From a virus (Duplodnaviria; Caudoviricetes), in IMG/VR virus record IMGVR_UViG_3300048819_000038, positions 1 through 60,909 of that record: a stretch of DNA of 60,909 nt; one strand, given 5' to 3'. Shown one piece after another: positions 22,928 through 59,350 of the stretch; position 1 is the first letter of the stretch, and each line of letters starts with the position of its first letter. The notes under the pieces are model-generated. The model was given only the letters and a program-made list of their open reading frames with translations, made no database searches and was not told the origin of the DNA. The position numbers were made by a program, and so were the translations under genes.

Positions 22928-22956
22928 ATTATACCGTAGTATCTTCAGTATGTCAA
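22928..22956 (-). promoter_or_regulatory. sigma70-type promoter, opposite to the surrounding genes
   Basis: TTGACA-17 nt-TATAAT, perfect consensus. Confidence 0.8.
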
Positions 22957-36018: not shown

Positions 36019-36019
36019 T

Positions 36020-36397: not shown

Positions 36398-36411
36398 ATC
36401 TATTACCCATA

Positions 36412-36428
36412 GTAACCAATTTGGTTAC
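36412..36428. repeat. 17-bp palindrome copy 15
   Basis: Supplies the TAA stop on the - strand. Confidence 0.95.
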
Positions 36429-37222: not shown

Positions 37223-37231
37223 GATACTTCC

Positions 37232-37636
37232 CTACGCTACAAACGCAGTACCAAGAGAGATGACCACTACGGGTGTGGGGGCTGTTGCGATATACGTAGA
37301 ACTTCCAGGGTTCGTCAGCGATCCGTTATTCGTTGCCGTAAGTGTTCCCGTACCGCCAGCAGAAGGCGTAAACGTAATCGTAACAGGAGAGGTTCCATTT
37401 AGCGTTACATTAGTGGCAGAAAAGGAACCTGCGAGTCCTGCCATCGCAGGGGTCACAACGGCATTTGTCGTTCCGTTTGCGACAAATGTAATCGTAACCG
37501 GAGAGTTAATAGACCCCGAAGAAAACGCCAGAGACATCGAATAGGATGTTGCTGGCCCTACCGGAGCAGGACTTCCAACCAGAACATCTTGTAGGTTCTG
37601 AAACCAGGGTATATGCGGAGAGAGTAGGTTCTGCAT
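37232..37636 (-). CDS. virion structural protein (Ig-like)
   Basis: T/S/G-rich; resembles the middle of 38658-41633. Confidence 0.55.
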   Translation of the reverse strand: MQNLLSPHIPWFQNLQDVLVGSPAPVGPATSYSMSLAFSSGSINSPVTITFVANGTTNAVVTPAMAGLAGSFSATNVTLNGTSPVTITFTPSAGGTGTLTATNNGSLTNPGSSTYIATAPTPVVVISLGTAFVA

Positions 37637-37646
37637 CGCTCTCTCC

Positions 37647-38645: not shown

Positions 38646-38657
38646 TGAATGACCTTC

Positions 38658-41633: not shown

Positions 41634-41649
41634 CTATGGAACCTTCCGA

Positions 41650-41666
41650 GTAACCAAATTGGTTAC
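41650..41666. repeat. 17-bp palindrome copy 17
   Basis: GTAACCAAATTGGTTAC. Confidence 0.95.
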
Positions 41667-42130
41667 TACTCGCCTCTTGGTAGTTCGTAACAGTGCGTAA
41701 CTATACGCATCAAGACTTCATCATTCCATAGCCTGCTGGATGGCCCCGCGTGACCGTGACTCTCCAGGCTTCTGCCGATCGTGCCGTCTACGAGCCATGT
41801 GTGTCCAATGCCACTAGGATTGACGTAGAAGGCCCAAAATAGTCTCCCCTGACCATATTGGCCTATCCCTGAATAATCCACCGGATTTAGCTTTGCGACC
41901 ATAGCACACCAACTGTACTGATCGAAGCTACCATCTGGAACGACTAACTGCTGGCCCGTCGATCTTGCGAGTACGTACTTCGTAAACCCTGAACAGTCGA
42001 TTCCGTGTATCGCAGATGTCTGACAGTATAGGGACGGTGACTTTCCGCCGTACAGGTATACGCAGTTTTCTGCTTCCAGGTTATGCAGAACGTCCCAGGC
42101 CATTGATACAGAAACAGGCGGAACTGTCAT
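41666..42130 (-). CDS. NlpC/P60 peptidase, probable endolysin
   Basis: Y.YGG...GIDCSGF...GH. Confidence 0.8.
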   Translation of the reverse strand: MTVPPVSVSMAWDVLHNLEAENCVYLYGGKSPSLYCQTSAIHGIDCSGFTKYVLARSTGQQLVVPDGSFDQYSWCAMVAKLNPVDYSGIGQYGQGRLFWAFYVNPSGIGHTWLVDGTIGRSLESHGHAGPSSRLWNDEVLMRIVTHCYELPRGE

Positions 42131-42131
42131 T

Positions 42132-42353
42132 TCAGTCTTCTCGCTTTATGCTCACCGTGATCCCTTTGGGCATCGTAGGTGAAGGACTCATGTACTTGTA
42201 AATCGTGAGGAGTGTTGTAGCGATGGCCCCGATCATTCCGGTCTGCCAAGCCTGTACTCCAAATCTCCTAGTCGCATAGTACACCCCAATACTACTTACC
42301 GGAATAAGAGCGGCTGTAATCCCGGTAAGTAGGACTTTCGTACGGGGCGACAT
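42132..42353 (-). CDS. holin-like protein with two TM segments
   Basis: Two hydrophobic segments, adjacent to the lysin. Confidence 0.6.
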   Translation of the reverse strand: MSPRTKVLLTGITAALIPVSSIGVYYATRRFGVQAWQTGMIGAIATTLLTIYKYMSPSPTMPKGITVSIKRED

Positions 42354-42772
42354 CAGTTTCCCTGTAGTCCTCCAAGTGGAGTGTTATCCAGGGATGCGTC
42401 CTGCACGACGGACGGATCTAGGTCGGCATCCGCAGAAACCGTGTCGGGGACGGGTTGCGGGGCAGGTACGAACACAGGAGGAGTCGCAGCGATAACGACG
42501 TGGGTATTAGCTGCGACAGTCTTTACCGTACCAGAAGGAACCGAGAGCACCTTCTTGGAGAGAGGGGCCGCTTCTACTTCAGGGCCGAACTTAATGTCCA
42601 GTCGGGCAATACCGAACGACGGCTGAAACTCCAGAGACTTCGGGAGTTGCTTCATTAGGTCATTCAGAAGCAGTATGACAAATGCAGGTAGGTCTTTTGC
42701 CGCTTCTGCCAGTAGGTCGATGTGGAAGTTTTCGATAGTGATACCGAAGACCACAATAGCGATGGTGAGCAT
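42353..42772 (-). CDS. hypothetical protein
   Basis: Hydrophobic N-terminus, Pro-rich tail. Confidence 0.55.
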   Translation of the reverse strand: MLTIAIVVFGITIENFHIDLLAEAAKDLPAFVILLLNDLMKQLPKSLEFQPSFGIARLDIKFGPEVEAAPLSKKVLSVPSGTVKTVAANTHVVIAATPPVFVPAPQPVPDTVSADADLDPSVVQDASLDNTPLGGLQGN

Positions 42773-42792
42773 TTTGGTTTCCGCCTTTCAAT

Positions 42793-43269
42793 TCACTGTC
42801 TTTTCAATGTATTGAATATATTTATCAATACAGAGATCGTTGCGATGATGCCGACTATGACCAACCAGAGAGAGTGTGCGCCTGTATTCTTACCCTCACT
42901 CCTCTCGACACGAACGATAAGTGCATCTATTTTGTCCGAGTTTGTTTGGTACTTCTGTTCCATCTGAGCACGTACAGAATTGATTATAGCCTCTGTTTCC
43001 GACCTGGACATAAAGGTATTTGTCTGGTCGGACAGCGCAGCACGGAACTCATTCACAGAGTCGAAACGCTTATTGTTGGCAATTTCTGCCTTTTCTACAG
43101 CACTCTGCTGTGCATCCAGCGCAAGTTTCGTTAATCTATCCTGCTGCTCGATTGCTAGTCTTAGTTCAGCCCTGTAGTCTCGTAGCCTGTCGTCGCCAAG
43201 TTTGTCCCGATCATGGAACATCTGCAACATCTTCTCATGCAGTGTCTCTATGTTCCATCCTTCGGACAT
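42793..43269 (-). CDS. coiled-coil protein with a C-terminal TM segment
   Basis: AVEKAE....RF.SVNEFR..L.D motif and hydrophobic C-terminus. Confidence 0.65.
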   Translation of the reverse strand: MSEGWNIETLHEKMLQMFHDRDKLGDDRLRDYRAELRLAIEQQDRLTKLALDAQQSAVEKAEIANNKRFDSVNEFRAALSDQTNTFMSRSETEAIINSVRAQMEQKYQTNSDKIDALIVRVERSEGKNTGAHSLWLVIVGIIATISVLINIFNTLKRQ

Positions 43270-43587
43270 TTACTTCGTGAACTTTTCTATCCTATCCAGG
43301 ATAATCTTAATGCTACCATCTCGGTAGTTATCCCCCTGCTTGATAAGGGCAATATCTTCCTTGATGGAGTCTTGACTGCGTGCAAGTTCCGTCATACGAT
43401 CCAGAACTTCCTTGTTGCCATTGCTCTGACTGTACTCCACTTTGTCCAGTCTGTATCCATGCATCGTCACCTGTACGTTGACCCATAGAACGTAAGAACC
43501 AAGTGTCGAAGTGACGATAATCATAGAGAGGATTAACTGCCCCAATGAGATAGACCTATCGAAAATAGTAGAGACGCCTTGTGTCAT
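43270..43587 (-). CDS. membrane protein (N-terminal TM plus coiled coil)
   Basis: ISLGQLI... hydrophobic segment. Confidence 0.6.
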   Translation of the reverse strand: MTQGVSTIFDRSISLGQLILSMIIVTSTLGSYVLWVNVQVTMHGYRLDKVEYSQSNGNKEVLDRMTELARSQDSIKEDIALIKQGDNYRDGSIKIILDRIEKFTK

Positions 43588-43940
43588 TGTTTTTGTCCCT
43601 CTTTGTCCTGTTCTACTAAGGCTTTTGTCAGTTCGTCCATGCCGTGTATCATCTTCCCAACCTGCTCGTTGGTGTACCTCTGACCTTCCAATAGTGCCTT
43701 CGTGGTAGCTACTTCATCTTTCTTCATCTCCACGACATCCCTGTACTCCCTGTTGGCAAGATAGGAAACACTTGCGATCAGTATAGAGGTCAGGAAAATT
43801 AAGTTGAATATAAAGCTAAGAGCCATCTGCTTCCTAGTTACAAATTCTCCCCACCACGAAAGAGGATCTGGTAGACTGGAAGCCACGGAGATATGAGATA
43901 CCCCGTCATCCTCCGGATCTTTTCCGATAATGACAGACAA
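43584..43940 (-). CDS. membrane protein (TM plus coiled coil)
   Basis: Central hydrophobic helix. Confidence 0.6.
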   Translation of the reverse strand: MSVIIGKDPEDDGVSHISVASSLPDPLSWWGEFVTRKQMALSFIFNLIFLTSILIASVSYLANREYRDVVEMKKDEVATTKALLEGQRYTNEQVGKMIHGMDELTKALVEQDKEGQKQ

Positions 43941-43961
43941 CTTGGGTACTCCTATCCTTTT

Positions 43962-44309
43962 TCAAACCTCTGTGAACAGCCTCTTTCCGCGCCACTTCTT
44001 TAGGTGAATGTGCCTGTACCTTACCTTCTTGACGGGCCAGTTCCACGGAGGAGTACCCTGCTGATCTATGTAGTTTTGGATAGGAGCGATTACGGATGTG
44101 AAGCACCCGGACAACGGATCTATGTTAGTAGTAGCCTGTGTACCGTCAATCAGTATCTCGTCCTCCCCTAGAGGAGTAGTCAGGTCGTCAATATCACTGG
44201 CATCGCAGTACTGCATAGTAGCACCACCGAGTGAGTCGTCGGTGTCACATGTCCATTCGACACCGACGCATTGTGGGGAGTCTTCCGGACATTCTGGATA
44301 GGAGCGCAT
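43962..44309 (-). CDS. acidic Cys-containing hypothetical protein
   Basis: GGAGG RBS. Confidence 0.55.
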   Translation of the reverse strand: MRSYPECPEDSPQCVGVEWTCDTDDSLGGATMQYCDASDIDDLTTPLGEDEILIDGTQATTNIDPLSGCFTSVIAPIQNYIDQQGTPPWNWPVKKVRYRHIHLKKWRGKRLFTEV

Positions 44310-44319
44310 CTCTACCTCC

Positions 44320-44652
44320 CTACGGTGCTACGACAGGCTTTCCGGTAGACGGATCTCGTACAGGTTTGGCAGGAGGCTCAACCTCTTTGGGAGGATCATT
44401 CTCCTTGGGCGGGTCTACCTCTTTCGGGGTATCGTCCTCCTCTAACTCCTGTAGCTGTTCCTCTATGAGTGCCTTCTGCAAGAGCAGGTCTTCCCTTGCC
44501 TGACGTGCAGCGATTGGATCTCCTTTGGACAGTACCGCAGAAGAGGGAAGGTCTTTCTTATGACGAATAACCTCTCCGTCAAATGCGACCACGCCTCCGT
44601 TGTCAAGTACATGTTCCATCTGCGTCCTGGTTAGTTGAAACCTATCCGCCAT
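44320..44652 (-). CDS. hypothetical protein after the capsid gene
   Basis: RBS; PK-rich tail. Confidence 0.6.
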   Translation of the reverse strand: MADRFQLTRTQMEHVLDNGGVVAFDGEVIRHKKDLPSSAVLSKGDPIAARQAREDLLLQKALIEEQLQELEEDDTPKEVDPPKENDPPKEVEPPAKPVRDPSTGKPVVAP

Positions 44653-44667
44653 TTCATTCCCCTTTCA

Positions 44668-44684
44668 GTAACCAATTTGGTTAC
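44668..44684. repeat. 17-bp palindrome copy 18
   Basis: Directly after the capsid gene. Confidence 0.95.
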
Positions 44685-44703
44685 AATTCGAGAGTCTCGA
44701 ATG

Positions 44704-45957
44704 CTACAGTTGAACCAGTGGGCATACCGTCAGGACGGCAGAACTGGCAAGTTTCTTCTTACGCGGAACCGCAGACATCGTAGACCACAGGTTCAGCCCA
44801 GGAGGGTTGCCGTTTGAGTCCGCAGATGTGACATACGAGAACGGGCCGAAGACGCTCTTGCCACTGTCCGGAGTACCGATCATGTTGGGAACCATGCCTG
44901 CCTTCGCTTCCAGTACAGGGGCGTTGGAAATCTCCCACGTGTTCAGGCTACCATCGTCCATGTCGTTCGTCAGGATGACCTTGTTGGACGGATGCAGGCG
45001 AAGGTACTGTCCAGAGGCAGGTACGTTCGGAGGCGCATTCCAGTTATCGAGGGCCGGATCTTCGTACATGAACTTGCGGTCGTCAATCTCGATCTTCAGT
45101 TCCCACATCGCTTCCAGGATCGACTTCATGTACTTGTAGTCGTTGAACGGAAGCGTGGGGGCCGCAGGAGAGATGCCCATGCGCGTTGCATAGATCGGCG
45201 CAAGGTTCTTGAACTCCGTAGTGAAGAATATGTAATTCAGCACGTAGAGCGGCATAGAAGCCCTATTGAACGTCGTTCCGTATTCCTGCTCGGCAAGAGT
45301 CTGGAGAAGTTGCATGTCGGTGATCGGGGTTGCACCAACGTTCGCGTGAGTCGATCCGGAGTTGCCGTCTCCCCATTGCGTAGAGACGGTTACGTTCAGA
45401 TCCGCAGGCATACCCCACGACATATTGAACGCCTGCCCATGCTCCGTACCGTAGGCATACGTATTGCAGAGCATCCCGATTGCCATGTGCTCGATACGAT
45501 ACCGACATCCCAAATCGAGCATTTCTAGCTGACCTACCTCGTAGGAGTTGAAAGCCGATATGTCTTCCATAACTGCCGTAGACTCCGTAAGTCCCCTGGA
45601 TAGGTTCTCCTCGATGCGGTGGAGCATAATCAGCATATCCTCGTTAATCTGCACACCGTGCTTGATCTTAGGGATGTCGTTCTGCTCCAAGCGAACCGCA
45701 AGGTTGGGAGTTTTCAGGGGCGCACGCTGACCATACCCGATGATCGGGGCGATGGTCGGACGATCCGAGATACGGGCCGCAATCTCCCCCCAATACCGGG
45801 GATGCCAGGGGATACGAGGGGCATTGGAAGCGGTAACGTTTTTCAGTTTACCATCCGTCGTACCCGTCCACCGGAAGTCACCCGCGATTGTCCGAACGTC
45901 CGCAAGTTCGTCAAACATCGAGTTGATATGTGTAACTGCAAGCAGTTCGTAAGACAT
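44704..45957 (-). CDS. major capsid protein (lambda gpE-like)
   Basis: PKIKHG..INE, R.E.MA...L, W......P..D pattern; follows protease and decoration genes. Confidence 0.8.
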   Translation of the reverse strand: MSYELLAVTHINSMFDELADVRTIAGDFRWTGTTDGKLKNVTASNAPRIPWHPRYWGEIAARISDRPTIAPIIGYGQRAPLKTPNLAVRLEQNDIPKIKHGVQINEDMLIMLHRIEENLSRGLTESTAVMEDISAFNSYEVGQLEMLDLGCRYRIEHMAIGMLCNTYAYGTEHGQAFNMSWGMPADLNVTVSTQWGDGNSGSTHANVGATPITDMQLLQTLAEQEYGTTFNRASMPLYVLNYIFFTTEFKNLAPIYATRMGISPAAPTLPFNDYKYMKSILEAMWELKIEIDDRKFMYEDPALDNWNAPPNVPASGQYLRLHPSNKVILTNDMDDGSLNTWEISNAPVLEAKAGMVPNMIGTPDSGKSVFGPFSYVTSADSNGNPPGLNLWSTMSAVPRKKKLASSAVLTVCPLVQL

Positions 45958-45972
45958 CTAAGGATCTCCTTC

Positions 45973-46689
45973 TTAGTCCACAACCCAACTGAGGTCAGGG
46001 AATGCGGCTTCGATCTGTGCGCGGGTAGGATTGGTGGCAACCCCTCCGGAGTAATCAGAAGCGATGCGGTTGATATAAGCGGTTCCTCCGTCGAAGAACC
46101 CTATACCCTGGTCGGAGAATATGTCATCCTTCATAGTTCGGGTATGGTTCAGGATGTAACTCTCTCCACGGCGAAGCGTCTGTCGCCCATCGTCCACCTT
46201 GGTAACAGCAACACCATTGGCGTGCGTCTTCGTGGTGGCAGTTACGAAGGTAACAACCGACCCGGAAACCGAGAGCACTTGCAAGAGTTCCTGCTGACCG
46301 GCTGTGTCCACCGTCAGGATGTCTCCGGGGTTGATATTCGTTACTGCGGCAAGCGTGAGGGTATAGACCCCTAGAACCGTACCACCGGAGGCGACCGTTG
46401 TGGCCGTCATGGCAGGCGACCACGGCACGAACAGGCCGATCTTGCCGCCTGCACTCCATGCCGTACCCGTATTGATACGAGAGAATACCTGTCCGTAGCG
46501 GAAGTAGGCATTCCCTGCGCGAATAACCTCACCGGAACCGGGGATGGTATAGTCGGCTGCAAGGGGTGTGTACGCGGTTGTGTCGATAGCCGCACCACCT
46601 ACTTTCCACCGAACCTGTTCTGCGTCCGCAAGGCATCCTACGACACGGCCCAGGTTCGTAGGCCCATAAGCTACTTGTCCGAAAGGCAT
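45973..46689 (-). CDS. head decoration protein
   Basis: Between protease and capsid genes; beta-rich. Confidence 0.6.
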   Translation of the reverse strand: MPFGQVAYGPTNLGRVVGCLADAEQVRWKVGGAAIDTTAYTPLAADYTIPGSGEVIRAGNAYFRYGQVFSRINTGTAWSAGGKIGLFVPWSPAMTATTVASGGTVLGVYTLTLAAVTNINPGDILTVDTAGQQELLQVLSVSGSVVTFVTATTKTHANGVAVTKVDDGRQTLRRGESYILNHTRTMKDDIFSDQGIGFFDGGTAYINRIASDYSGGVATNPTRAQIEAAFPDLSWVVD

Positions 46690-47220
46690 TTACTCATCCT
46701 CCTTAGCCGGGATGCCATACTGTGCGCGGAGTACAGTCATCGCTGCCTCTTGTGCTACCGCAGCAACGCTGTTGTCCGACTCTTCCTTGCGGGTAATACG
46801 GTTCGTGTACGTCCTGGCGTCCTGACGACCAGATCCTTTTGCCGGAACCTGCGTAGACGGTGTGGAGAACTGAGGCAGTACGGCACGGTTCTTCCAAATC
46901 GCGTCGTAAAGGACGGGATCTTTCAAGCGAAGCGCGGTTTCCTCTGCAAGTTTCGCAGGGGTAAACTTGCCTTCCTTGTTGTAGGCTTCCATCACTTCGT
47001 CGTTACGAAGTTTCTCCTGGTCGGCAATCGCCTGATTGCGAACACGCTCCTGGCCGGCAAGGCGATCACGCTCTGAGGCCATTGCGATATACTTAGGATC
47101 TTTCTCCACGTCGTATACGGCAGGGAGTTGAGTGGTTGCGGTTACGACGACAGGCTTCTCCTCCTTGGCGTGCATACCGAGTAAAGCCTTGATTTGGTCT
47201 AGTAGTCCTTCGTCAGCCAT
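46690..47220 (-). CDS. nested scaffold protein (internal start)
   Basis: AAAGGAAAAGCT ATG GCT GAC in frame after the protease domain. Confidence 0.55.
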   Translation of the reverse strand: MADEGLLDQIKALLGMHAKEEKPVVVTATTQLPAVYDVEKDPKYIAMASERDRLAGQERVRNQAIADQEKLRNDEVMEAYNKEGKFTPAKLAEETALRLKDPVLYDAIWKNRAVLPQFSTPSTQVPAKGSGRQDARTYTNRITRKEESDNSVAAVAQEAAMTVLRAQYGIPAKEDE

Positions 47221-48072
47221 AGCTTTTCCTTTTGACGGACTTTTACCGTCTGTGATGCGCTTGACAAGTTTCTTGTAAGCGGAATCTTTGTCCATTACTC
47301 CGTCCATGAGTCCTGCGTCTACAGCCTCCTTACCAATGTAACCTCGACCATCCGCCACTGCGGAAACCTTATCTGGAGACATCTGACGACCGTACGCAAC
47401 GTCTTTCTCAAACATCGCGTGGAAGGCGTCTATCTCCCTTTGGATCTCTGCCTTGCCCTCTTCGGACATCGGTACTCCGGACTCTCCATTACCCTTGTAC
47501 GGAGCAGACTTGAATAGCATCCTGTCTACACCCATGTTCTTTAGCATCTTGGAGTTATCGGTTCGTACCGTGTATACCCCAATAGATCCAAGAACACTCA
47601 TTCCTGTGCCGTACATATCGTCGCACTGTGCGCCAATCCAATAGGCCGCAGAAGCACAAAGACCATCTGTAAACCCTACAATCGGCTTCTTCTTGCGGAA
47701 ATTCTGCATCGCTGCGACCGCCTGATCCAAGCCATCAATCGATCCTCCCGGAGACTGAAATACCGGGAACGCTCCCTTGACGAGCGGATCGTTAGAGGCA
47801 CGGTTTAACATCGCGCAAAGGCTATCTACCGCAGTACCGCCAAGGTAATAGCAGTAGAAGTCGGCAGAACGAACGATAGGCCCGGAAACCTTAAAGTGGG
47901 CTACACCGTTCATATCCGTGGTGTAGTTCATGGAACCGTCGTAGCCATCCTCTACTGCACTACGGTAGCTTGCGTAGACAGCCCCGTACTCCTCCGGAGA
48001 CTTCGCGAAGATTTCCGAGAAGGCGTTTACTTCGCTCTGCATGATAGAGACATAACCAAGTGTGTCGGGCAT
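46690..48072 (-). CDS. S49 (SppA-like) prohead protease fused to scaffold
   Basis: SPGG, CASAAYWI, GSIGV, A.DAGL.DG; ATG 48072 preferred because a terminator lies just upstream. Confidence 0.88.
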   Translation of the reverse strand: MPDTLGYVSIMQSEVNAFSEIFAKSPEEYGAVYASYRSAVEDGYDGSMNYTTDMNGVAHFKVSGPIVRSADFYCYYLGGTAVDSLCAMLNRASNDPLVKGAFPVFQSPGGSIDGLDQAVAAMQNFRKKKPIVGFTDGLCASAAYWIGAQCDDMYGTGMSVLGSIGVYTVRTDNSKMLKNMGVDRMLFKSAPYKGNGESGVPMSEEGKAEIQREIDAFHAMFEKDVAYGRQMSPDKVSAVADGRGYIGKEAVDAGLMDGVMDKDSAYKKLVKRITDGKSPSKGKAMADEGLLDQIKALLGMHAKEEKPVVVTATTQLPAVYDVEKDPKYIAMASERDRLAGQERVRNQAIADQEKLRNDEVMEAYNKEGKFTPAKLAEETALRLKDPVLYDAIWKNRAVLPQFSTPSTQVPAKGSGRQDARTYTNRITRKEESDNSVAAVAQEAAMTVLRAQYGIPAKEDE

Positions 48073-48087
48073 AGGTTTTCCAGGTAC

Positions 48088-48126
48088 AAAAAAAGAAGCA
48101 GTCTCGCTGGATTGGCGAGACTGCTT
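48088..48126 (-). terminator. intrinsic terminator ending the small-RNA array
   Basis: AAGCAGTCTCGC/GCGAGACTGCTT 12-bp stem followed by CTTTTTTT. Confidence 0.8.
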
Positions 48127-48205
48127 AATGGAAAGAACCATCATATGAGCAGTTGCTTTGGGCAGGAGTAGGTATACTATCCCGTAACCCATATAAAGTT
48201 GTATT

Positions 48206-48313
48206 CGTAGTAGGTTAGATTTGAACTAACGGATCGGCACTGATGTTATACAGTTGGCCTCACACGTAGGATTACAAGTTCTGCGTCGCATTTAACCACT
48301 CTGCCACTACTAC
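48206..48313 (-). tRNA. atypical tRNA-like RNA (~107 nt; loop CT-TGT-AA, Thr-type anticodon)
   Basis: Acceptor GTAGTAG/CTACTAC, D arm TGGCAGAGTGGTTAAATGC, T arm GTTAG-TTCAAAT-CTAAC; extended anticodon and variable arms. Confidence 0.6.
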
Positions 48314-48321
48314 GAATTATT

Positions 48322-48392
48322 TTGCCATCTTATCCGATTCGGACGGAGTTGCGCTAACCGGCTGCGCCGCACTACCTATGCTTCGATGGCAA
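48322..48392 (-). ncRNA. degenerate tRNA-like cloverleaf
   Basis: TTGCCATC/GATGGCAA ends, with GCA/TGC, GCGC/GCGC and TCCG-TCCGAAT-CGGA arms. Confidence 0.5.
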
Positions 48393-48399
48393 GCTTTTT

Positions 48400-48676
48400 G
48401 GGGATCGCTTACAGTCATTACCTTTCTGTGGTTCCTGCGTAGGCAAATCCCCCATCTTATTGTCAGGCAAGTGATGTAAGAGCGGTATTTTACAAGGTAA
48501 CGCTCTTACTTCGGCCCAACAAAACTTAGGAAGGAGTACTCTCGTCCATCATACAGACCGATCTGAGTTTTACCCACAGTGCCCCTTTCGGGATTTTATC
48601 GGGAACCTTCCAAGTGGTATGTTCTTTTTGCACCACATTTGCCTTAAAGACTATTTTGGTGTAGTTTTAACCACTT
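48400..48676 (-). ncRNA. four further end-paired small RNAs (48400-48452, 48460-48522, 48529-48611, 48612-48676)
   Basis: Each unit is closed by a 6-9 bp terminal stem, with 0-7 nt linkers. Confidence 0.45.
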
Positions 48677-48692
48677 CTTGCTATTTCTAAAA

Positions 48693-48767
48693 GTGCCTGG
48701 GTTGGACTCGAACCAACGATCTCTTCGGTATGAACGAAGCGAGGACTCCAGACTCCTCCACCCGGCA
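48693..48767 (-). tRNA. tRNA-Met/Ile2 (CAT)
   Basis: Cloverleaf: GAGG/CCTC D stem, CTTCG-TTCATAC-CGAAG, GTTGG-TTCGAGT-CCAAC; no encoded CCA. Confidence 0.85.
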
Positions 48768-48773
48768 TGAGTA

Positions 48774-48790
48774 GTAACCAATTTGGTTAC
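48774..48790. repeat. 17-bp palindrome copy 19
   Basis: Between the promoter and the tRNA 5' end. Confidence 0.95.
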
Positions 48791-48831
48791 TACCTACCCG
48801 AAACTGGCCCGCTAAGGAACGTAACATGGGT

Positions 48832-48860
48832 ATTATAACATACTTTTCCAGATTTGTCAA
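48832..48860 (-). promoter_or_regulatory. sigma70-type promoter for the RNA array
   Basis: TTGACA-17 nt-TATAAT with a TG extension. Confidence 0.85.
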
Positions 48861-49150
48861 GTGGTGTCTATTTCCTGAAAAACCATATTGTCAAAATACT
48901 TCGGTTGCTGGCCTCTCAATAGGGTCATAGTCCAGTCAAGGTGAATTCTCTCTTTGGTGGATGTACGGAATAAGTGCTCCCTGGTACGTGTATTGTCGGT
49001 CAGAAACAGTACCACGTACTTATTGCCATACAAGGCCGCATTTTTAAAAGCCAGATCAATGTTCTCGTTAGTACCTGCCACGCTAAGGTATGCTTCTTGT
49101 GGGTCTACTACGAGGGGCTGATACTGTCCATCAGTTCTAATAGCTTGCAT
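48857..49150 (-). CDS. hypothetical protein
   Basis: ORF between the portal gene and the RNA array. Confidence 0.5.
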   Translation of the reverse strand: MQAIRTDGQYQPLVVDPQEAYLSVAGTNENIDLAFKNAALYGNKYVVLFLTDNTRTREHLFRTSTKERIHLDWTMTLLRGQQPKYFDNMVFQEIDTT

Positions 49151-49308
49151 AGTTGCGCCTTTGCCTGTTTTAGTGTTTTAACGGTTACTTGCCCTCTGTC
49201 TACTTCTTGGGCAAGTTTTCGGATCTCCCCACCTGCATAGGAGGCTATCTTGCGGAACTCGGAAGACTTTCCTTCCTTGCTGGCAAAACTCGGATAACCA
49301 GAACTCAT
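49108..49308 (-). CDS. hypothetical protein
   Basis: ATGA overlap with the portal gene. Confidence 0.55.
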   Translation of the reverse strand: MSSGYPSFASKEGKSSEFRKIASYAGGEIRKLAQEVDRGQVTVKTLKQAKAQLCKLLELMDSISPS

Positions 49309-50825
49309 TGTGACGCCTCCTCTAGTTCCTTTGTAAGTCCAGGAACCTTCTTTGTTTTTACGTACTCTGCGACGATCTTGAATGCGTCTTCGATTGCCTG
49401 CGGGGTAGCGGCGGGTTTAGACTTCGTGCTGCCAGTTGTGTCTACCGTGATACGCTCTCTCACCGGAAGAAGCGGAAGGGAATCGTCATTCGGGTCAAAA
49501 CCTTCGGGCATCTCCGGGATGTTTACTGCTCCACGTACCCAATCCTCTCGCGGGTCAAATACACCGATGTTGGCTAGGATCTCGTACACCTTAGCGATCA
49601 GGAGTCTTTCTTCATCATCCCAATGTCCTAGGAATAGCCGAGGAGTTAGGTGTCGGTAGTCCTCCCCAAAGTTATAGACTACTGCCGTTTCCAGCATATC
49701 CGACGTTACCACGTCCTGTAGGTCGTTCCTAGGATAGCCTAAGAAGAAGTTCTGGCTGTTCTGGTGAGTCTTACCGAGGGCGAACGAAGAAGAACCGTCT
49801 CCCTGCGTCGTAGTGAGTGTGTTACCTAATACCGCCATCATCATCTCTTGTTGATGGAATCCGCAGAACGTGGCGAACGTATCCAGCGAAGAAGACGGAG
49901 GCCACCATATCTTATACTCGTCCTGCTTGGTATGAGCGAAAGAAGCACCATTCTCCGTGTTGTTGATGTCCTGGATCATCTTTACGAGTTTGTTTGGGTT
50001 ACTGGTAATCCCTTCGATGAACGGCTGCCCGAAACGCTTCTGCGCGATACCCCACCAACGCATCGCAGTATCCATACTGTAGTAGTGCTTATGCATGACC
50101 CTGAGATCGCCATTACCCCACGGAAGACCCCTGGTAGGCTTGTAGGTATAGAGCATTACCTTTTCGGCAGGAATAGGCTCGGATCGTCCCTTTTGAGGCG
50201 TCCAGGAAAAAACGTTGAGGACTTCCATTGTCTTCTCGTCCAAATCGAAGGCAACCTGCTCGACTGGACGATGTACCACATTACGAAGGACACGCTTGCC
50301 TTTATACTTTCCATTGTCCTCTATTCTCCAGATGAGTTCCTGACAGGAGAAACCAAACGGCACAGCCTGCAATAGATTCCATAGGACAGCCCGAAAAGGA
50401 GTCTTCTTACCTGTCTCCGGGTTGCGTACGTTGTGGATAAGGTACTCGCAGAACTCCAATGCCTCCATCGCCTTTTCGTAGTCCCCCGATACAACCTCAT
50501 CCTTCTTCGAGGGAACCGAAGGTAGAAGTTGAGGAGTCTTGTATAGTGCGGCTTGTAGTTTGAGATCAATCGGGGTACGAACTGCCGCGAATGTCATCAT
50601 GCGGTAGAGTTCGTCGTATCCCTTGTGCTGAATGAGTACGTCCGGGTTATACCGAGCAATCGTGAATACAGACCGTAGGTAAGAGTCATAACCCCACATC
50701 GCAGACTGCTGAGACTCTGACTCGGTTAGCTTCTGCGGTGTGCCAAGAGTAGGGTTCCCAGGCTGACCATTCGGCCCAAGTATGTAGATAGGGACTGGTG
50801 AGTTTGTCGGAAAGAAGTTCGGCAT
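49305..50825 (-). CDS. portal protein (DUF935 / Mu gp29-like)
   Basis: A..FGFS..E..W, P.G.G.L, RFG.P, LG.TLTT..G.GS.SFALG..H. Confidence 0.85.
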   Translation of the reverse strand: MPNFFPTNSPVPIYILGPNGQPGNPTLGTPQKLTESESQQSAMWGYDSYLRSVFTIARYNPDVLIQHKGYDELYRMMTFAAVRTPIDLKLQAALYKTPQLLPSVPSKKDEVVSGDYEKAMEALEFCEYLIHNVRNPETGKKTPFRAVLWNLLQAVPFGFSCQELIWRIEDNGKYKGKRVLRNVVHRPVEQVAFDLDEKTMEVLNVFSWTPQKGRSEPIPAEKVMLYTYKPTRGLPWGNGDLRVMHKHYYSMDTAMRWWGIAQKRFGQPFIEGITSNPNKLVKMIQDINNTENGASFAHTKQDEYKIWWPPSSSLDTFATFCGFHQQEMMMAVLGNTLTTTQGDGSSSFALGKTHQNSQNFFLGYPRNDLQDVVTSDMLETAVVYNFGEDYRHLTPRLFLGHWDDEERLLIAKVYEILANIGVFDPREDWVRGAVNIPEMPEGFDPNDDSLPLLPVRERITVDTTGSTKSKPAATPQAIEDAFKIVAEYVKTKKVPGLTKELEEASQ

Positions 50826-50837
50826 TAAGTCTCCTTA

Positions 50838-50854
50838 GTAACCAATTTGGTTAC
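50838..50854. repeat. 17-bp palindrome copy 20
   Basis: Between terL and portal: TAG TAA then AAGGAG. Confidence 0.95.
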
Positions 50855-52278
50855 TACCAGTCCCTCCCAAGGGATGCAAATTCGTTCATTTGTGGGACGT
50901 AGGAGGCGTTTTCGTGGTACTCTTCGACGACTTCTTCTATGGTACGTACGCCTCCATCCAGATCCTTTAGCATGATGGCTACCATTGCGGCAAGGTCGTC
51001 GTAGGAACCTTTGTCGCCCTTAATCTCCGTAGAGTTAGCCAACTTACGCCGTTTGAGTGATCTTAGCTCTTTGATGACTTCTGGATGGGCAAAAAGAGCC
51101 ACTTTCCGTCCTTCGATAAGTGAGGACATGTTATCGTAGAGTTCGACTTTCTTTGCAGACCCGCCGCCAAAATTGATTCCCTCGATGTCCACTCCGTAAT
51201 CTCTGGACATGGTGGACGGGACGGAAAGGCCCATACCAGTGATGTCTGCGATAAACCTTCCGGGGAATAGCTCATCGCATCGTTTGAGTGCCTGATATAC
51301 CTGATTCCACCTGCCAAGATCCGTGTGGGCATCCGGGGTGAAGTGGCGCATATAGACTTGAGTGTGCGTGTCACAGTCCATAACTCCGATAGCTAGACGG
51401 TCGCCTGATACTGCAAGGTCGGCTCCTTTTTGGTAGGTAGTCATCGGGTTGAATCGGTAATCCTGCCCAAACCACTCATTCGGAAGCGTTCCCTCGACAT
51501 ACGGAACGGTACATACCTTCTCCGGGTCTTCTACCTGAGATCCCGCCTCCATCAGAAACTCGCACAGCATCTCAATCCGCCAACGGATCTTCTGCATGGC
51601 GGTTTCATTGATGTTCCAAGAACGAACTAACTCATCGAATGTCTTGGCAGGGTTCTCATAAGGATGCGGAACTCGAATGAGTTGATCGCCTAATACCTTT
51701 GCGCCTACTACCGGGATAACGTTCCCGCTAATGTCCGGGTTATTGCGCGTATTCATGCAGTAACGCCAGAAGTCATTGAACGGGTTATAGGGGTTTGGCG
51801 TGCCTACCTGCCAGTACTCTGCATTCAACTTGAATGCCATCGGAGCAAGGAAAGAGGCGAACACTCCGTCGTCCATCTCCCCACCCTCGTCGTTAATAAT
51901 CAAACCCGGTGTCTTACCACGAACGTTCTCCGGTTCTTCGAGGGACGCAAAGTAGATAGGACGCCATCCGGGAGGTTGTAATATCTTATTCGTGGTATCG
52001 TAGACATTCTCCCAAGAATCCCCGAACATAAACCGAAGTTGCTCTTTTTGCACCATCGTGATTGGTGCAAGGGTATGCGCGGTATACAGAACCGACTTTT
52101 GCTTGTACAGCGCGAACTCACGCATGAGGTGAATTAGCATGGTCGTCTTGCGCCATCCACGACCGGCAGCAAGAAAGTTGTACTGCTTGCGGTTCGCCAT
52201 GACATACTTCTGACCGTCATGTAACTTCGGCAGTGCCAGCTTAAAGACGGTATCTTGCTTAATCGGTGTTATCGGCAA
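50854..52278 (-). CDS. terL: terminase large subunit
   Basis: LHDGQ, Walker A variant AGRGWRKTT, RG, IINDE, GTP, GADLA, D.TG.G, DDL. Confidence 0.9.
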   Translation of the reverse strand: MPITPIKQDTVFKLALPKLHDGQKYVMANRKQYNFLAAGRGWRKTTMLIHLMREFALYKQKSVLYTAHTLAPITMVQKEQLRFMFGDSWENVYDTTNKILQPPGWRPIYFASLEEPENVRGKTPGLIINDEGGEMDDGVFASFLAPMAFKLNAEYWQVGTPNPYNPFNDFWRYCMNTRNNPDISGNVIPVVGAKVLGDQLIRVPHPYENPAKTFDELVRSWNINETAMQKIRWRIEMLCEFLMEAGSQVEDPEKVCTVPYVEGTLPNEWFGQDYRFNPMTTYQKGADLAVSGDRLAIGVMDCDTHTQVYMRHFTPDAHTDLGRWNQVYQALKRCDELFPGRFIADITGMGLSVPSTMSRDYGVDIEGINFGGGSAKKVELYDNMSSLIEGRKVALFAHPEVIKELRSLKRRKLANSTEIKGDKGSYDDLAAMVAIMLKDLDGGVRTIEEVVEEYHENASYVPQMNEFASLGRDW

Positions 52279-52834
52279 CGAACTCTCCCTCTACCGTGTC
52301 CGAATCGTCCGTATTAGCAGATCCACCAAGAAGCCTTTGTTCCCAGGCATCCCCGTCTAATTCGTCAAATTCGTATCGCACCACGATGTCTGTCTTCTGC
52401 TCTACCCTCTGCTTCGGGGCGTAGTAGTCAGGATTCTCTGCGGCAAGTAGTCTGACGAGCAATGCGGCATACCGAGCATCCTTCTCCTGGAAAACAAGAT
52501 ACTCTGTCTGCTTACGCATCTTATGAGCATGAGACGCCATCGCCGCTTGCATATTCAGCAAGAACTGCCCGTAATCCATCAGGTGCTCTGTCTTACCCTT
52601 GTCAAAATCTACCAATTCCAGCTTACCGCGTTCTATCCAGCCTTGCTTTGTGCCATCACCTATACGAGTCATAGCAAAAGCGTACGTGATACTTGCCCCT
52701 TCCGAAAGGTATGCCAGTATTTTGTTCTTATTCGTGGGCGTGAAGTACCTACTGGCCGCATTAGCACTTACTATCTTCCTCTGCTTGTCGGGACTTTGAG
52801 GAAAAAGATCATTAAAACTTGGCAGCCTGCTCAC
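52259..52834 (-). CDS. terS: terminase small subunit
   Basis: HTH-like N-terminus, directly upstream of terL. Confidence 0.65.
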   Translation of the reverse strand: MSRLPSFNDLFPQSPDKQRKIVSANAASRYFTPTNKNKILAYLSEGASITYAFAMTRIGDGTKQGWIERGKLELVDFDKGKTEHLMDYGQFLLNMQAAMASHAHKMRKQTEYLVFQEKDARYAALLVRLLAAENPDYYAPKQRVEQKTDIVVRYEFDELDGDAWEQRLLGGSANTDDSDTVEGEFVADNTD

Positions 52835-53145
52835 TTGTCTTCTCCTTTCAGTAATACTAACTCCTGCTCCATCGCATTGAAGTCCTGACAGATTTGTAGT
52901 AAGTTGAACCCTTCCGCGAGATTGATCGGATTTACTCCTATCGCCTCCACTACCGCTCCTGTAAGTGCAGCGTCAAATTTCTCACTGTACAGATAGATAA
53001 TCATTTGACCGTTTTTATCAAACTCAACGTTGTAAGCCTGCGCTCATTCCATGAGTTCAGGATCATCAAATACGAGTTGAGCGCGTCCCATTAGTGCCTG
53101 CAAAACCGTATCGGCATCTACAATAATGACACGCCGCCTGGACAT
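52831..53145 (-). CDS. hypothetical protein with an internal in-frame TGA at 53044-53046
   Basis: MSRRRVIIVDAD...PELME*AQAYNVEFD...KGEDK*; fills the gap and overlaps terS by GTGA. Confidence 0.55.
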
Positions 53146-53150
53146 TAGTT

Positions 53151-53362
53151 TCATTTCGTAGCCTTCGATTTCTTATCCAAGAAAGTCTCTTCGATATTGT
53201 GGAGAAAAGATACTCTGCTGATATGTCGGTTGTGCTGATCCAGTAGCGCGTCGTAGATTACATCCTCTAACGGCGTATCGGTATCCATCAGGTAAGCCCT
53301 GGCATACTTCGCCGCCATGCCCCTGAGTTCATGCACTTTGTCCGATTTTGGATTGATTTCCA
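53151..53362 (-). CDS. hypothetical protein
   Basis: AGGGG RBS, MEINPKSDK. Confidence 0.55.
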
Positions 53363-53364
53363 TA

Positions 53365-54018
53365 CTATCCCCTAATAAAAGATGACACCCGAACCGCTTT
53401 GGCCCCTGTAGCGGCCTCGTAGCGGCTAAGAATGACATCTGCGTTGTACGGATCGGGTTCGATATTGTACGAAATACGCCCTGCTCTAATACATGCGATC
53501 AGGCATCCACCCATCCCGGCGAAAGGATCTAGGATGACATCCCCTTCTTCGGACATCAGCAGGATTTGGTTCTCCCAAATATCTCCCCTACCATCGAATA
53601 TCCCTTGCGCGAAGATAGACCCCGTGAGAAGTCTGGAACGGTTGGCAACCGGCTCTACGTTCCTGCTATTGATCCCGAAACGAGTTGCACAGAATAGGAA
53701 CTGTAAATCTTCAATATACCCACTCGGATCGTCCTGGTCTTCCGGGAAGATTCGTATACCTACCAAGTCTACCTTTCTGTCCGAATAGAATGAGTATAGA
53801 GTCGGTAGTTGTTCACTTTTACAGAAAAAACTACAGCTTCCTCGAAAAGCGGTAGGGAACTCTACTTCTTCTTCCAGATTAACTCCAACAAAGTCTGACA
53901 TTAGATGCACGCTGTCGGTATTTGATATTTTCCTGTCATTCCCGACATACAGGCGATGTTCGCCCATTTGCCACATATCGCCTACTGCTGTCCTGGAAGG
54001 TAAACTCATTGTGTTCAT
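53365..54018 (-). CDS. degenerate N6/N4 DNA methyltransferase-like protein
   Basis: GD.W..G.HRL..G N-terminus and VILDPFAG.G SAM motif; no DPPY. Confidence 0.7.
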   Translation of the reverse strand: MNTMSLPSRTAVGDMWQMGEHRLYVGNDRKISNTDSVHLMSDFVGVNLEEEVEFPTAFRGSCSFFCKSEQLPTLYSFYSDRKVDLVGIRIFPEDQDDPSGYIEDLQFLFCATRFGINSRNVEPVANRSRLLTGSIFAQGIFDGRGDIWENQILLMSEEGDVILDPFAGMGGCLIACIRAGRISYNIEPDPYNADVILSRYEAATGAKAVRVSSFIRG

Positions 54019-54242
54019 TATGCACTATTCCCGCTTTTATCCGGTCTTTTCCCGGCACTCGCCCTGGTCGCCTTACTCTTTGCCCTCTGCTCGTCAGACC
54101 TGAGCATCGAGATCCTTGCCGCCGCCTGCTCTACTAGGATACGCCTATTGTACCACGCTTCGGTAGGTGGGCCGATTACCGGAGGCGGCTCTAGCCTAGC
54201 GAGTACAAAGTTCTCTCCGTCATCGTTATAGATGATCTCCAT
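54018..54242 (-). CDS. hypothetical protein
   Basis: AGGGG RBS. Confidence 0.55.
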   Translation of the reverse strand: MEIIYNDDGENFVLARLEPPPVIGPPTEAWYNRRILVEQAAARISMLRSDEQRAKSKATRASAGKRPDKSGNSA

Positions 54243-54268
54243 GTCTATCCCCTAGTGGTAGAGCCTCA

Positions 54269-54285
54269 GTAACCAATTTGGTTAC
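54269..54285. repeat. 17-bp palindrome copy 21 (extends to 31 bp, 54262-54292)
   Basis: agcctcaGTAACCAATTTGGTTACtgaggct. Confidence 0.95.
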
Positions 54286-54321
54286 TGAGGCTGTGTTTCT
54301 CCGCACAATTTACAGGAGAAA

Positions 54322-54954
54322 CTACGGGCCTGCGGGAGTGGATGTGGGAACACTACCGGGTGGCAGTGCCCCTGCTGCTCCTGCCGGGGAAGGGACTGTG
54401 GCTACCGTGAGGGTGACAGTTGCGGTACTCGATCCGTCTACGATAGAGATAGAGGCAGAACCGGAACCCACCGGGCTAACCGTAAAGCCAGAGACAGTGA
54501 CACTGCTTACGGAAGCTACGGTTGTATCAGAGGAGGTGACTACCGGGGCTGTTGCGCCAGTAAGCGTGACGGACTGCGGCGCATCGTTCGGAGAGGCGAA
54601 GGAGAGCGTAGACGGGGAGACGGATAGCGGTGCGACAGGTGCAGGGTCGATTCCGGCAAGGGAGGATACGTCTGCGCTTAGGTCACTAATCACAGCGTCG
54701 AGTTGCGGGTTGTTTGCACTGAGGGCGGCGAGTTGGGACTGCAACGAGGCGAGTCCTGCGGTAACACGTGCGGCTGTTGCAGCGATGTCGGCTTTGAGGG
54801 CTGCGTCATCGGCAACAAGAGTAGCGATCTGGTCTGAGAGGGCCATTTGGTTCTTCTCCAAGGTTTGTAGGTGGGCCTGTAGTTCCGATACATTGACCGG
54901 AGTAGCGACGAAATCTTTTAGTTCGGCAGGTGTGCCGTCGATGGTCAGTTGCAC
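54322..54954 (-). CDS. coiled-coil plus Ig-like (Big_2) protein
   Basis: SSDTTVASV...V..G.A.I...DG; AGGAGG RBS. Confidence 0.7.
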   Translation of the reverse strand: MQLTIDGTPAELKDFVATPVNVSELQAHLQTLEKNQMALSDQIATLVADDAALKADIAATAARVTAGLASLQSQLAALSANNPQLDAVISDLSADVSSLAGIDPAPVAPLSVSPSTLSFASPNDAPQSVTLTGATAPVVTSSDTTVASVSSVTVSGFTVSPVGSGSASISIVDGSSTATVTLTVATVPSPAGAAGALPPGSVPTSTPAGP

Positions 54955-55024
54955 TTTCTCTGCCTCCTGCTAAGTCGGCTAGTAGTATTATACCACAATT
55001 CCCCAATAGTATGCACCGTAACCC

Positions 55025-55050
55025 AAATCTTGACTTCCGCGTCAAGATTT
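55025..55050. terminator. hairpin at the end of the HNH gene
   Basis: AAATCTTGAC/GTCAAGATTT. Confidence 0.5.
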
Positions 55051-55263
55051 TACCACACTCTTCTTATGGTGTCTACTATGGCAGTTGTGACACAGTACGG
55101 TAAGATCAGAGAGAAGTTCCTTGCCATACCGCTCGTAGGTTCGGTGATGCACTTCGAGTCTCTGATTGCTATAGCAGACCTGACACCGATTCTTAGCCGC
55201 CGTCAAAGCCTTCTTCCGTAGGGCTAACCAGTGCGGTGTCTGGAGGTAGAGTTCGTACGGCAT
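55042..55263 (-). CDS. HNH endonuclease
   Basis: Y..YL....W...R.....CQVC....LEVHH..Y......L..LC..CH. Confidence 0.85.
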   Translation of the reverse strand: MPYELYLQTPHWLALRKKALTAAKNRCQVCYSNQRLEVHHRTYERYGKELLSDLTVLCHNCHSRHHKKSVVKS

Positions 55264-55450
55264 TGCTTTCAATGCCTGAACGGAAACGGGACTTGTTGTA
55301 GTTTTCCCCAAAGTATTGCCGAATGCAGTTTTCAATGATGATTCTGGCAATTTCTGGTGAACCGTACTCTGACTTGCGGATTCTGTAGTTTTCTGTAGTA
55401 CCGTGCATGTTGTCGCGTTGCTGCGCTTGGTTCTCATTTTCACTCTCCAT
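55193..55450 (-). CDS. hypothetical protein
   Basis: GGGAG RBS and a promoter (GTGACA-17 nt-TATAAT, 55469-55497) upstream. Confidence 0.5.
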   Translation of the reverse strand: MESENENQAQQRDNMHGTTENYRIRKSEYGSPEIARIIIENCIRQYFGENYNKSRFRSGIESNAVRTLPPDTALVSPTEEGFDGG

Positions 55451-55490
55451 GATGTTCTCCCTTGTATAATTATACCACGAAAGGAAAGCT

Positions 55491-55760
55491 ATGTCACTAA
55501 CACCCATCGAGCGACTGACCAAAGAGATAGAGCGGCAAGGGTATGACCGTGTGAATATCCAGGTTCCTAGCGGATCGCAACGAAAGTTGGAGATACCACG
55601 GTGGGAGGCGACTGCCAGGAATACGGCCCTCGGAACCGTCGTCCTGATTACCTCCCGGATACCTGTGCGAGACTATCTCGGTAAGTCGGTCTATCTCAGA
55701 CTCTACACCGACTCCACGTTTCACTACCTCGCGCTACCCGTCGAAAGGGAAGACAAATGA
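55491..55760 (+). CDS. hypothetical protein
   Basis: AAAGGAAA RBS. Confidence 0.6.
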   Translation: MSLTPIERLTKEIERQGYDRVNIQVPSGSQRKLEIPRWEATARNTALGTVVLITSRIPVRDYLGKSVYLRLYTDSTFHYLALPVEREDK

Positions 55761-56017
55761 CAATCAAAGAAGAGATGCTTTTACGAATGGATTTAATCGG
55801 CCTCATCGCGTACCCTGCTAACATGGCAATGCGTCACGCAATGGACACTATCGAGGAAATGGAAGGCAGGTGGGAAGATAGCACTTCTGGATACCCTCCT
55901 GAACTAATCCAAGTTATCTGGATGGCTGTTAGCAATCGTACCGGGGAATGGCTTGATGTCAACTTTCCCCAATTCCCAGGACGGCGACACTTCGGAGGTA
56001 AAAAGGATGCCTTGTAA
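55757..56017 (+). CDS. hypothetical protein
   Basis: ATGA overlap. Confidence 0.6.
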   Translation: MTIKEEMLLRMDLIGLIAYPANMAMRHAMDTIEEMEGRWEDSTSGYPPELIQVIWMAVSNRTGEWLDVNFPQFPGRRHFGGKKDAL

Positions 56018-59333: not shown

Positions 59334-59350
59334 GTAACCAAATTGGTTAC
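59334..59350. repeat. 17-bp palindrome copy 24 (extends 59329-59355)
   Basis: ccataGTAACCAAATTGGTTACtatgg. Confidence 0.95.

Follow-up and report, generated by a model that had tools for sequence, protein, structure and literature searches.

Anatomy of the cassette

The uncultivated virus considered here, a member of the Caudoviricetes (IMG/VR record IMGVR_UViG_3300048819_000038), is represented by a stretch of 60,909 bp, hereafter the window, with an estimated completeness of 57%, so that about 43% of the genome lies outside it. On the minus strand, within the head-gene module and between the portal-side genes and the gene for an S49 head-maturation protease, lies a non-coding cassette that occupies 48860-48086 (about 775 nt). 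Its order is sigma-70 promoter, copy of a palindrome, tRNA-Met(CAT), five end-paired modules (53-83 nt), a 108-nt transfer RNA (tRNA)-like RNA, and intrinsic terminator; the tRNA, the five modules, and the tRNA-like RNA are numbered units 1 to 7 (Table 1). A greedy map of 106 open reading frames (ORFs) shows a tightly packed genome whose largest gap is the cassette region, and no ORF above 36 aa lies inside units 2-7. Peat metagenome runs contain the window's DNA, and no variants were seen in two DNA runs that are possibly its source.

Transcription signals stand at both ends of the cassette. The consensus promoter claimed by a previous reading of the letters alone (the sequence-only reading) is present and is one of only two perfect matches in the whole window (60.9 kb; expectation, 0.01); transcription is expected to start near 48825-48827. 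The palindrome copy that was placed ahead of the tRNA is likewise found in the leader. A terminator had been described after unit 7, and it exists with a strong 12-bp stem, but it lies about 80 nt beyond unit 7 and not directly after it. It ends approximately 14-24 nt upstream of the likely protease start at 48072 and is the only terminator-like site on the minus strand of 36000-55900. Given this position directly before the protease start, late transcription must read through the terminator; excision of the cassette RNAs from the late message is also possible.

Both the longest protease ORF (500 aa) and the database model (484 aa) overrun the terminator hairpin (48072-48192, minus). Residue 31 of the 484-aa model aligns with residue 10 of a relative with 49% identity, an indication that the protease really begins at the ATG at 48072.

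Table 1. Positions of the cassette features and of the neighbouring head genes in the window.
Feature	Position	Strand	Description
Sigma-70 promoter	48860-48832	minus	TTGACA-17-TATAAT, TG before the -10 box; 12/12 matches
Copy of genome-wide 23-nt palindrome	48771-48793	minus	In 5' leader, ends 3 nt before the tRNA; 11-bp hairpin
Unit 1, tRNA-Met(CAT)	48693-48767	minus	ARAGORN; Rfam RF00005, 45.3 bits vs gathering score 29
Unit 2	48612-48676	minus	65 nt, 34% G+C; 7-bp end stem (48612-48618 / 48670-48676)
Unit 3	48529-48611	minus	83 nt; 6-bp end stem (48529-48534 / 48606-48611)
Unit 4	48460-48522	minus	63-nt long hairpin; outer stem of 9 pairs (two G-U), inner stem of 9 bp
Unit 5	48400-48452	minus	53 nt, interrupted hairpin; 6-7-bp end stem (48400-48405 / 48447-48452); z -2.23
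Unit 6	48322-48392	minus	69-71 nt; 7-8-bp end stem (48322-48329 / 48385-48392)
Unit 7	48206-48313	minus	108-nt tRNA-like RNA; Rfam tRNA, 37.4 bits vs gathering score 29
Trailer	48127-48205	minus	79 nt, weakly structured (z -1.17); between unit 7 and terminator
Intrinsic terminator	48086-48126	minus	12-bp stem (48126-48096) with 7 G-C pairs, 7-nt loop, T run
Large terminase	50854-52278	minus	Head-gene module
Portal	49305-50825	minus	Head-gene module
Two small ORFs			Between portal gene and non-coding region
S49 head-maturation protease	46690-48072	minus	3' of non-coding region
238-aa ORF			Between protease gene and major head protein gene
Major head protein	44704-45957	minus	Head-gene module

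The only other perfect TTGACA-17-TATAAT promoter in the window, at 22928-22956 on the minus strand, faces leftward into two minus-strand ORFs (21850-22474) amid plus-strand genes. Neither ORF has a PHROG match, and this promoter with its two ORFs may form a second autonomous unit. Ahead of the terminase genes and of an HNH endonuclease gene (55042-55443) is a promoter-like site (55469-55497, minus; 11/12 matches and a TG) at which the structural operon may begin; that operon has to pass the cassette terminator by read-through.

The palindrome in the leader is part of a set of 24 sites in the window, where none are expected, each a perfect palindrome of 17-23 nt with the core GTAACCAAWTTGGTTAC; they include 788-804, 10001-10017, 41650-41666, 44668-44684, 48774-48790, 50838-50854, and 59334-59350. 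At the sites compared with the ORF map, the palindrome lies in short intergenic gaps, and either central base is found on both gene strands. It may act as a transcript-punctuating hairpin or as a symmetric protein-binding site of the kind of the mycobacteriophage stoperators. As a marker of kin, the palindrome matched 32 IMG/VR stretches; none of five records tested (three with more than one match) carries a relative of the protease, and no related IMG/VR record was found to contain the palindrome in multiple copies.

A non-random chain of RNA modules

When 48317-48692(-) is folded alone, the minimum-energy structure consists of exactly units 2-6, each closed by its own end stem of 6-9 pairs. 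The fold has an energy of -108.7 kcal/mol (z -2.93), and none of 100 dinucleotide shuffles folds as well. Closed modules of 50-115 nt with a closing stem of at least 6 were then counted in minimum-energy folds: the real sequence has five, covering 333 of its 376 nt, and three or fewer are present in all 300 dinucleotide shuffles and in all 197 other 376-nt stretches of the window. To remove bias from the choice of borders, a sliding scan was performed on both strands in 806 frames, each 600 nt long, with base pairs allowed to span no more than 125. The minus strand of the cassette contains all three of the longest chains (6, 5, and 5 adjacent modules); chains in the other frames do not exceed 4, and the plus strand reaches 3 across the cassette. 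Applied to the T4 tRNA operon, this metric detects only 4 of the 10 annotated RNAs and is therefore conservative. The modular fold is non-random, far beyond chance.

The terminal stems described by the sequence-only reading exist: those of units 2, 3, 5, 6, and 7 are perfect inverted repeats of 7, 6, 6, 8, and 11 nt, respectively, and in unit 4 the inner stem is a perfect inverted repeat and the outer stem requires its two G-U pairs. The fold of unit 3 is a three-way junction with a GAAA-capped hairpin, joined to unit 2 by a 0-nt linker. Unit 4 is the most stable (z -5.5), with none of 200 shuffles folding as well. Unit 6 resembles a cloverleaf, with a four-way junction, a central hairpin that resembles a D arm, and a loop (UCCGAAU) close to a T-loop, and is called as a tRNA by ARAGORN only at a relaxed 70% threshold. 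Nucleotides 2-11 of unit 2 are identical to the D-loop 10-mer of unit 7 (E about 0.02-0.04), and no further similarity between units was found. Nothing tRNA-like is present in units 3, 4, and 5. The linkers are short and mostly A/T-rich, as had been claimed, with 0-16 nt each, 46 nt in total, and 78% A+U vs 51% within units. The cassette contains no tandem repeats, and the longest antisense match of any unit to the rest of the window is 13 nt, which is the chance level.

A 9-mer, ATAAGATGG, has three copies in the window, two of which lie in the cassette (48325-48333 and 48452-48460, minus), each running into a strand of an end stem. This recurrence is weakly significant, three matches being reached in 2 of 100 shuffles. 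UAAG begins two of the linkers.

The two outermost units are of tRNA type. ARAGORN at its default setting finds one tRNA in the whole window, the tRNA-Met(CAT) of unit 1, and Rfam agrees, so that the tRNA(CAT) of the sequence-only reading is confirmed by two of the tools proposed there as a check. Unit 1 is canonical, with a cloverleaf, a 7-nt anticodon loop, and an Rfam score above gathering; it has a U1-A72 pair, a G5-A68 mismatch, and no encoded CCA. Unit 7 possesses a 7/7 acceptor stem, an ordinary D arm, and a T arm composed of a 5/5 stem and the loop TTCAAAT, and its end stem can be extended with flanking sequence to 11 bp (48203-48213 / 48307-48317). Approximately 55 nt separate its D and T arms, in place of the anticodon arm and variable loop, vs approximately 22 in a tRNA, and the Rfam alignment has 40 nt where the tRNA model has 17. 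No canonical 5-bp anticodon stem with a 7-nt loop is present, and the length of 108 nt compares with a normal range of approximately 72-95 nt. The Rfam match appears only with permissive filters and was filtered out in the whole-window run. ARAGORN makes no call at default, calls the unit with an assumed 31-nt intron at position 34/35, and at the 70% threshold reports a 99-nt Thr(tgt) with a long variable arm; its transfer-messenger RNA (tmRNA) search found nothing. Sequence inspection of the central region reveals a well-formed 7-nt loop that an 8-pair stem, including two A-C mismatches, could close; a 7-pair hairpin follows in the variable-arm position. By its sequence, unit 7 is a tRNA look-alike that should not decode normally. 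The proposal of seven end-paired RNAs with a single normal tRNA thus stands as regards the one canonical tRNA, but unit 7 is not merely end-paired, since it passes the Rfam tRNA threshold.

One peat metatranscriptomic run contains 79% of the sampled words and yields nine pieces at 99% identity or more over 46000-51000. A 481-nt contig from this RNA library (48324-48804) spans the palindrome and units 1-6, with one end 1 nt from the closing pair of unit 6 and the other approximately 20 nt past the expected start site. Another contig (47750-48281) has one end within unit 7, crosses the terminator, and reaches into the protease gene. RNA cover over the neighbouring genes is patchy, and that of two DNA runs is flat; 48282-48323 and 48805-48929 are without RNA cover and were not used as evidence. 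The stretch is present in an RNA library, with some molecules crossing the terminator, and the cassette is probably transcribed.

The end of the second contig at 48281 (minus) is joined to sequencing-adaptor letters inside unit 7, five nt after position 26 of the unit, which is the start of the anticodon loop at canonical spacing. This end, a hint from a single contig, may mark cleavage or a stop of reverse transcription, or may have no meaning.

Interpretation and competing explanations

With moderate confidence, the region is interpreted as a self-contained non-coding "RNA moron", built like a tRNA operon and inserted between the portal-side genes and the head-maturation protease. This reading draws support from the bracketing of the unit by promoter and terminator, the absence of an ORF above 36 aa, the tRNA identities, and the modular fold. 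As in a moron, the unit has its own promoter and terminator and sits between conserved structural genes. The polycistronic, tRNA-operon-like cassette proposed by the sequence-only reading gains support from the same signals and lack of ORFs, and also from the terminal tRNA and tRNA-like units, the A/U-rich linkers, and the contig over units 1-6.

The anatomy, the fold, the tRNA-type identities, and the presence in an RNA library are observed; from them we infer processing, stability, and function as follows. Host sigma-70 RNA polymerase would start at the perfect consensus promoter and produce a transcript of approximately 700 nt, comprising the leader hairpin, tRNA-Met(CAU), five tRNA-sized RNAs with pairing 5' and 3' ends, and the 108-nt tRNA-like RNA, before halting, at least in part, at the strong intrinsic terminator. 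Cuts would probably fall in the A/U-rich single-stranded linkers at RNase E-type sites, and the ends of the tRNA and the tRNA-like RNA would be finished by RNase P, RNase Z, or exonucleases (3' trimming). The products would be discrete small RNAs whose end stems may shield the modules from exonucleases. RNase P also cleaves substrates other than tRNA, among them pre-4.5S RNA, phage M3 RNA, and P1/P7 C4 RNA, and the tRNA precursors of T4 are without CCA and have spacers of less than 5 nt (PMC11143913).

The best guess for the six non-canonical products is that they would be trans-acting RNAs, tRNA-like or otherwise structured, that bind host tRNA-handling or defence proteins as decoys or sponges. 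More specifically, and only tentatively, the cassette might encode a set of phage small RNAs not described before, tRNA-sized and end-paired and with an anticodon-less tRNA look-alike among them, that host tRNA-processing enzymes release from the transcript. In trans, these decoys or sponges would engage host proteins that recognize a tRNA by its shape, for instance defence nucleases that cleave tRNA or enzymes that process or modify it; the decoys against anticodon nucleases suggested by the sequence-only reading would be one possible case. The position between portal and protease prompts a bolder but less likely idea, an RNA cofactor of head assembly or packaging.

Several results weigh against the interpretation as a cassette of separate RNAs. 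Units 2-6 have no match to tRNA or any other Rfam family at E up to 10 in 47900-49000, where six calls were made that, apart from two tRNA matches, are all at chance level, and they show no T-loop/D-loop pair recognizable by RNase P; the release of these units as separate RNAs is therefore conjecture. Tiling by perfect Watson-Crick end stems (stems of at least 6) is not significant, with a chain of 3 that is equalled by 24 of 300 shuffles. Considered singly, only unit 4 is clearly more stable than its shuffles; units 2 and 5 lie at approximately -2.2, units 1, 3, 6, and 7 have unremarkable z values of -0.8 to -1.6, and the central 55 nt or so of unit 7 are no more stable than shuffles (z +0.37). 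Folding energy does not discriminate between the strands (-108.7 vs -103.9). The RNA evidence consists of contigs assembled from one RNA run, which carry no information on strand, ends, or abundance and may reflect DNA carry-over. The searches described below yielded no homologous cassette, and no known RNA-repair, Ro/TROVE, or CCA-adding family is among the 13 Pfam families found in the 36 larger ORFs of the window, which holds approximately 57% of the genome.

The strongest alternative, although an unlikely one, is that the modules are a cis-acting structured leader or punctuation (a t-element plus hairpins) that defines and protects the 5' end of the protease-scaffold-capsid messenger RNA (mRNA), which the strong promoter would drive through a leaky terminator; the modules would then not be independent RNAs acting in trans. 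The position of the terminator, the sole one on that strand in the structural operon and immediately ahead of genes that need read-through, is consistent with a leader, as is the contig that crosses it into the protease gene. The hairpin palindromes in 24 intergenic gaps suggest that the phage punctuates its transcripts with structures. There is also a precedent in the t-elements of plant mitochondria (PMC1920247) and in the tRNA punctuation model: as in the cassette, a non-decoding tRNA-like structure lies beside an mRNA whose ends RNase P or RNase Z could define. Plant t-elements, however, belong to an organellar system. Against a leader, five distinct elaborate modules and two tRNA-type genes exceed its needs, the terminator, with its 12-bp stem and T run, speaks for transcription of the unit mostly stopping at that point, and the contigs do not prove one continuous transcript.

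More doubtful still is a decaying tRNA gene cluster, in which only tRNA-Met works and units 2-7 are functionless relics of tRNA genes. Such decay could account for unit 7, whose anticodon region is aberrant although its acceptor, D, and T arms are kept, for the D-arm-like hairpin and near-T-loop of unit 6, and for the 10-mer that unit 2 shares with the D-loop of unit 7. Neutral decay should, however, hit end stems and interiors alike, whereas five end stems of 6-9 pairs are intact and the tRNA features are gone. The chain of modules is also unmatched elsewhere in the window, and the region is the largest non-coding gap of a tightly packed genome.

A single large ornate RNA, with the units as its domains and tRNA genes at its flanks, is improbable. 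GOLLD and ROOL, two families in Rfam, are RNAs of this kind that occur in phages adjoining tRNA genes. The 376-nt stretch is more stable as a whole than its shuffles, and the apical regions of units 4 and 5 share a 7-nt complementarity, both of which would suit one large RNA. Complementarities between units are at chance level, however, no substantial long-range helix exists beyond a 3-bp outer closure, and Rfam gives no non-tRNA match at the gathering threshold or at E up to 10; the last two results also set the region apart from the GOLLD and ROOL families. Lastly, the region could act at the DNA level, as an origin or packaging site with many inverted repeats, or its stems could have arisen by chance in non-coding sequence. 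This would fit the similar energies of the two strands and the non-significant tiling but is very improbable, given that the consensus promoter, the terminator, and both tRNA-type genes share one strand and orientation, that the chain is 6 on the minus vs 3 on the plus strand, that none of 300 shuffles reaches the module count, and that an RNA library contains the stretch.

Relatives and precedents

Relatives of the cassette were sought by sequence, by the adjoining protease, and by motif. A blastn search of the cassette against 50,697 phage records gave no match. The protease as a single query found none in IMG/VR; in alignments against IMG/VR, GTDB genomes, and JGI metagenomes, its relatives have at most 39% identity among the matches listed, and the closest proteins, with 53, 49, and 46% identity, come from Logan and NCBI contigs. 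A tblastn search of the phage records with a close relative of the protease (P0003) gave nothing at 60% identity or more. Only 1 of 240 loci of distant protease relatives (at most 39% identity) has any tRNA within 4 kb, suggesting that the wider group does not have the cassette as a common trait, as would be expected of an accessory unit that was inserted. Scans with motifs of unit 4 and unit 3 gave 41 and 24 matches, respectively, to unrelated elements with only the seed in common. A full-text literature search, which was not exhaustive, found no description of such an array.

A pattern of the D-loop and T-loop motifs of unit 7, placed 50-75 nt apart, has 24 matches in IMG/VR. Eight of these possess at least 6 of 7 acceptor pairs, a 5/5 T stem, and a length of 99-118 nt, and default ARAGORN calls none of them. 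An Rfam scan of nine loci, those eight and L282, which is similar to L292, found that six pass the Rfam tRNA threshold; for six of the nine, ordinary tRNA genes are found no more than 1.5 kb away, and one 138-kb contig carries three over-long tRNA-model genes in a row. The matches missed by default ARAGORN are L285:2572-3136 (the three in a row), L291:253-490, L286:4588-4692, L295:1788-1886, L301:3219-3325, and L292:3813-3926, each with 30-45 extra nt inserted in its anticodon or variable region; they may be spliced, may function as long tRNAs, or may be mimics. These genes of other phages have the same layout as unit 7, but their inserts differ and they show no sequence kinship with it beyond the searched motifs. 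In a partial check, no run of non-tRNA modules was seen beside them. Gaps in the tRNA arrays of other phages are mostly open frames and hence unusable as comparators.

The closest precedent, by analogy, is the T4 cluster of tRNA-Arg, rnaD (119 nt), and rnaC (139 nt), which lie back to back with spacers of 1 and 6 nt. T4 rnaC has a T-arm-like hairpin and paired ends, and neither rnaC (species 1) nor rnaD (species 2) has an Rfam family; the function of both is still given as unknown (PMC9697503). In the T4 cluster and in the cassette alike, non-tRNA RNAs are co-oriented and contiguous with tRNA genes and separated by spacers of a few nt. The cassette differs in having six non-canonical units rather than two, shorter units (53-108 nt), its own consensus promoter and terminator, and a position inside the head-gene module of a much smaller phage. 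No homology to rnaC or rnaD was detected by blastn including the T4 locus, the only match being 20 nt (E 0.47) and outside both.

Classic morons share with the cassette the independent promoter-gene-terminator unit among late structural genes; in 239 of the 240 distant loci, no tRNA is present at this place. Classic morons encode proteins, however, whereas the payload of the cassette is RNA, and the known RNA morons are single small RNAs of the Hfq type (PMC4104026, PMC7067206).

Other classes of RNA were compared with the cassette, and none was supported by the tests made. Phage-borne or tRNA-adjacent structured RNAs include GOLLD, ROOL, YrlA Y RNAs, phi29 pRNA, and ToxI arrays. Paired ends are common to Y RNAs and the cassette, and a position in the packaging module is common to phi29 pRNA and the cassette. 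The Y-RNA-like RNAs envisaged by the sequence-only reading found no support: a bacterial Y RNA (YrlA) would combine a Ro-binding end stem and a tRNA-like module with a neighbouring rsr (Ro/TROVE) gene, but there is no Rfam match to it at E up to 10 and no TROVE family among the 13 Pfam families of the 36 larger ORFs. Its antitoxin RNAs fared no better, since a ToxI-type array would consist of near-identical tandem repeats beside a toxin gene, and the cassette has no tandem repeats and its units are dissimilar beyond the one 10-mer. Membership of phi29 pRNA or tmRNA has no support from Rfam, in which only tRNA matched, or from the empty ARAGORN tmRNA search. The cassette is of the "tRNA operon plus accessory stable RNAs" kind, with six non-canonical units and its own signals.

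Small stable RNAs in the tRNA cluster of T4 have been known since the 1970s, and the cassette provides a compact and statistically clear second example of such RNAs in phage tRNA clusters. Over-long tRNA look-alikes recur, poorly annotated, in phage tRNA arrays, and because default finders miss them, inventories of phage tRNAs are probably incomplete. Should the units be processed and target host proteins of tRNA handling or defence, the cassette would offer a convenient minimal system for a long-standing question, and if they are indeed decoys or sponges, this would supply a function for a class of RNA first met as T4 rnaC and rnaD.

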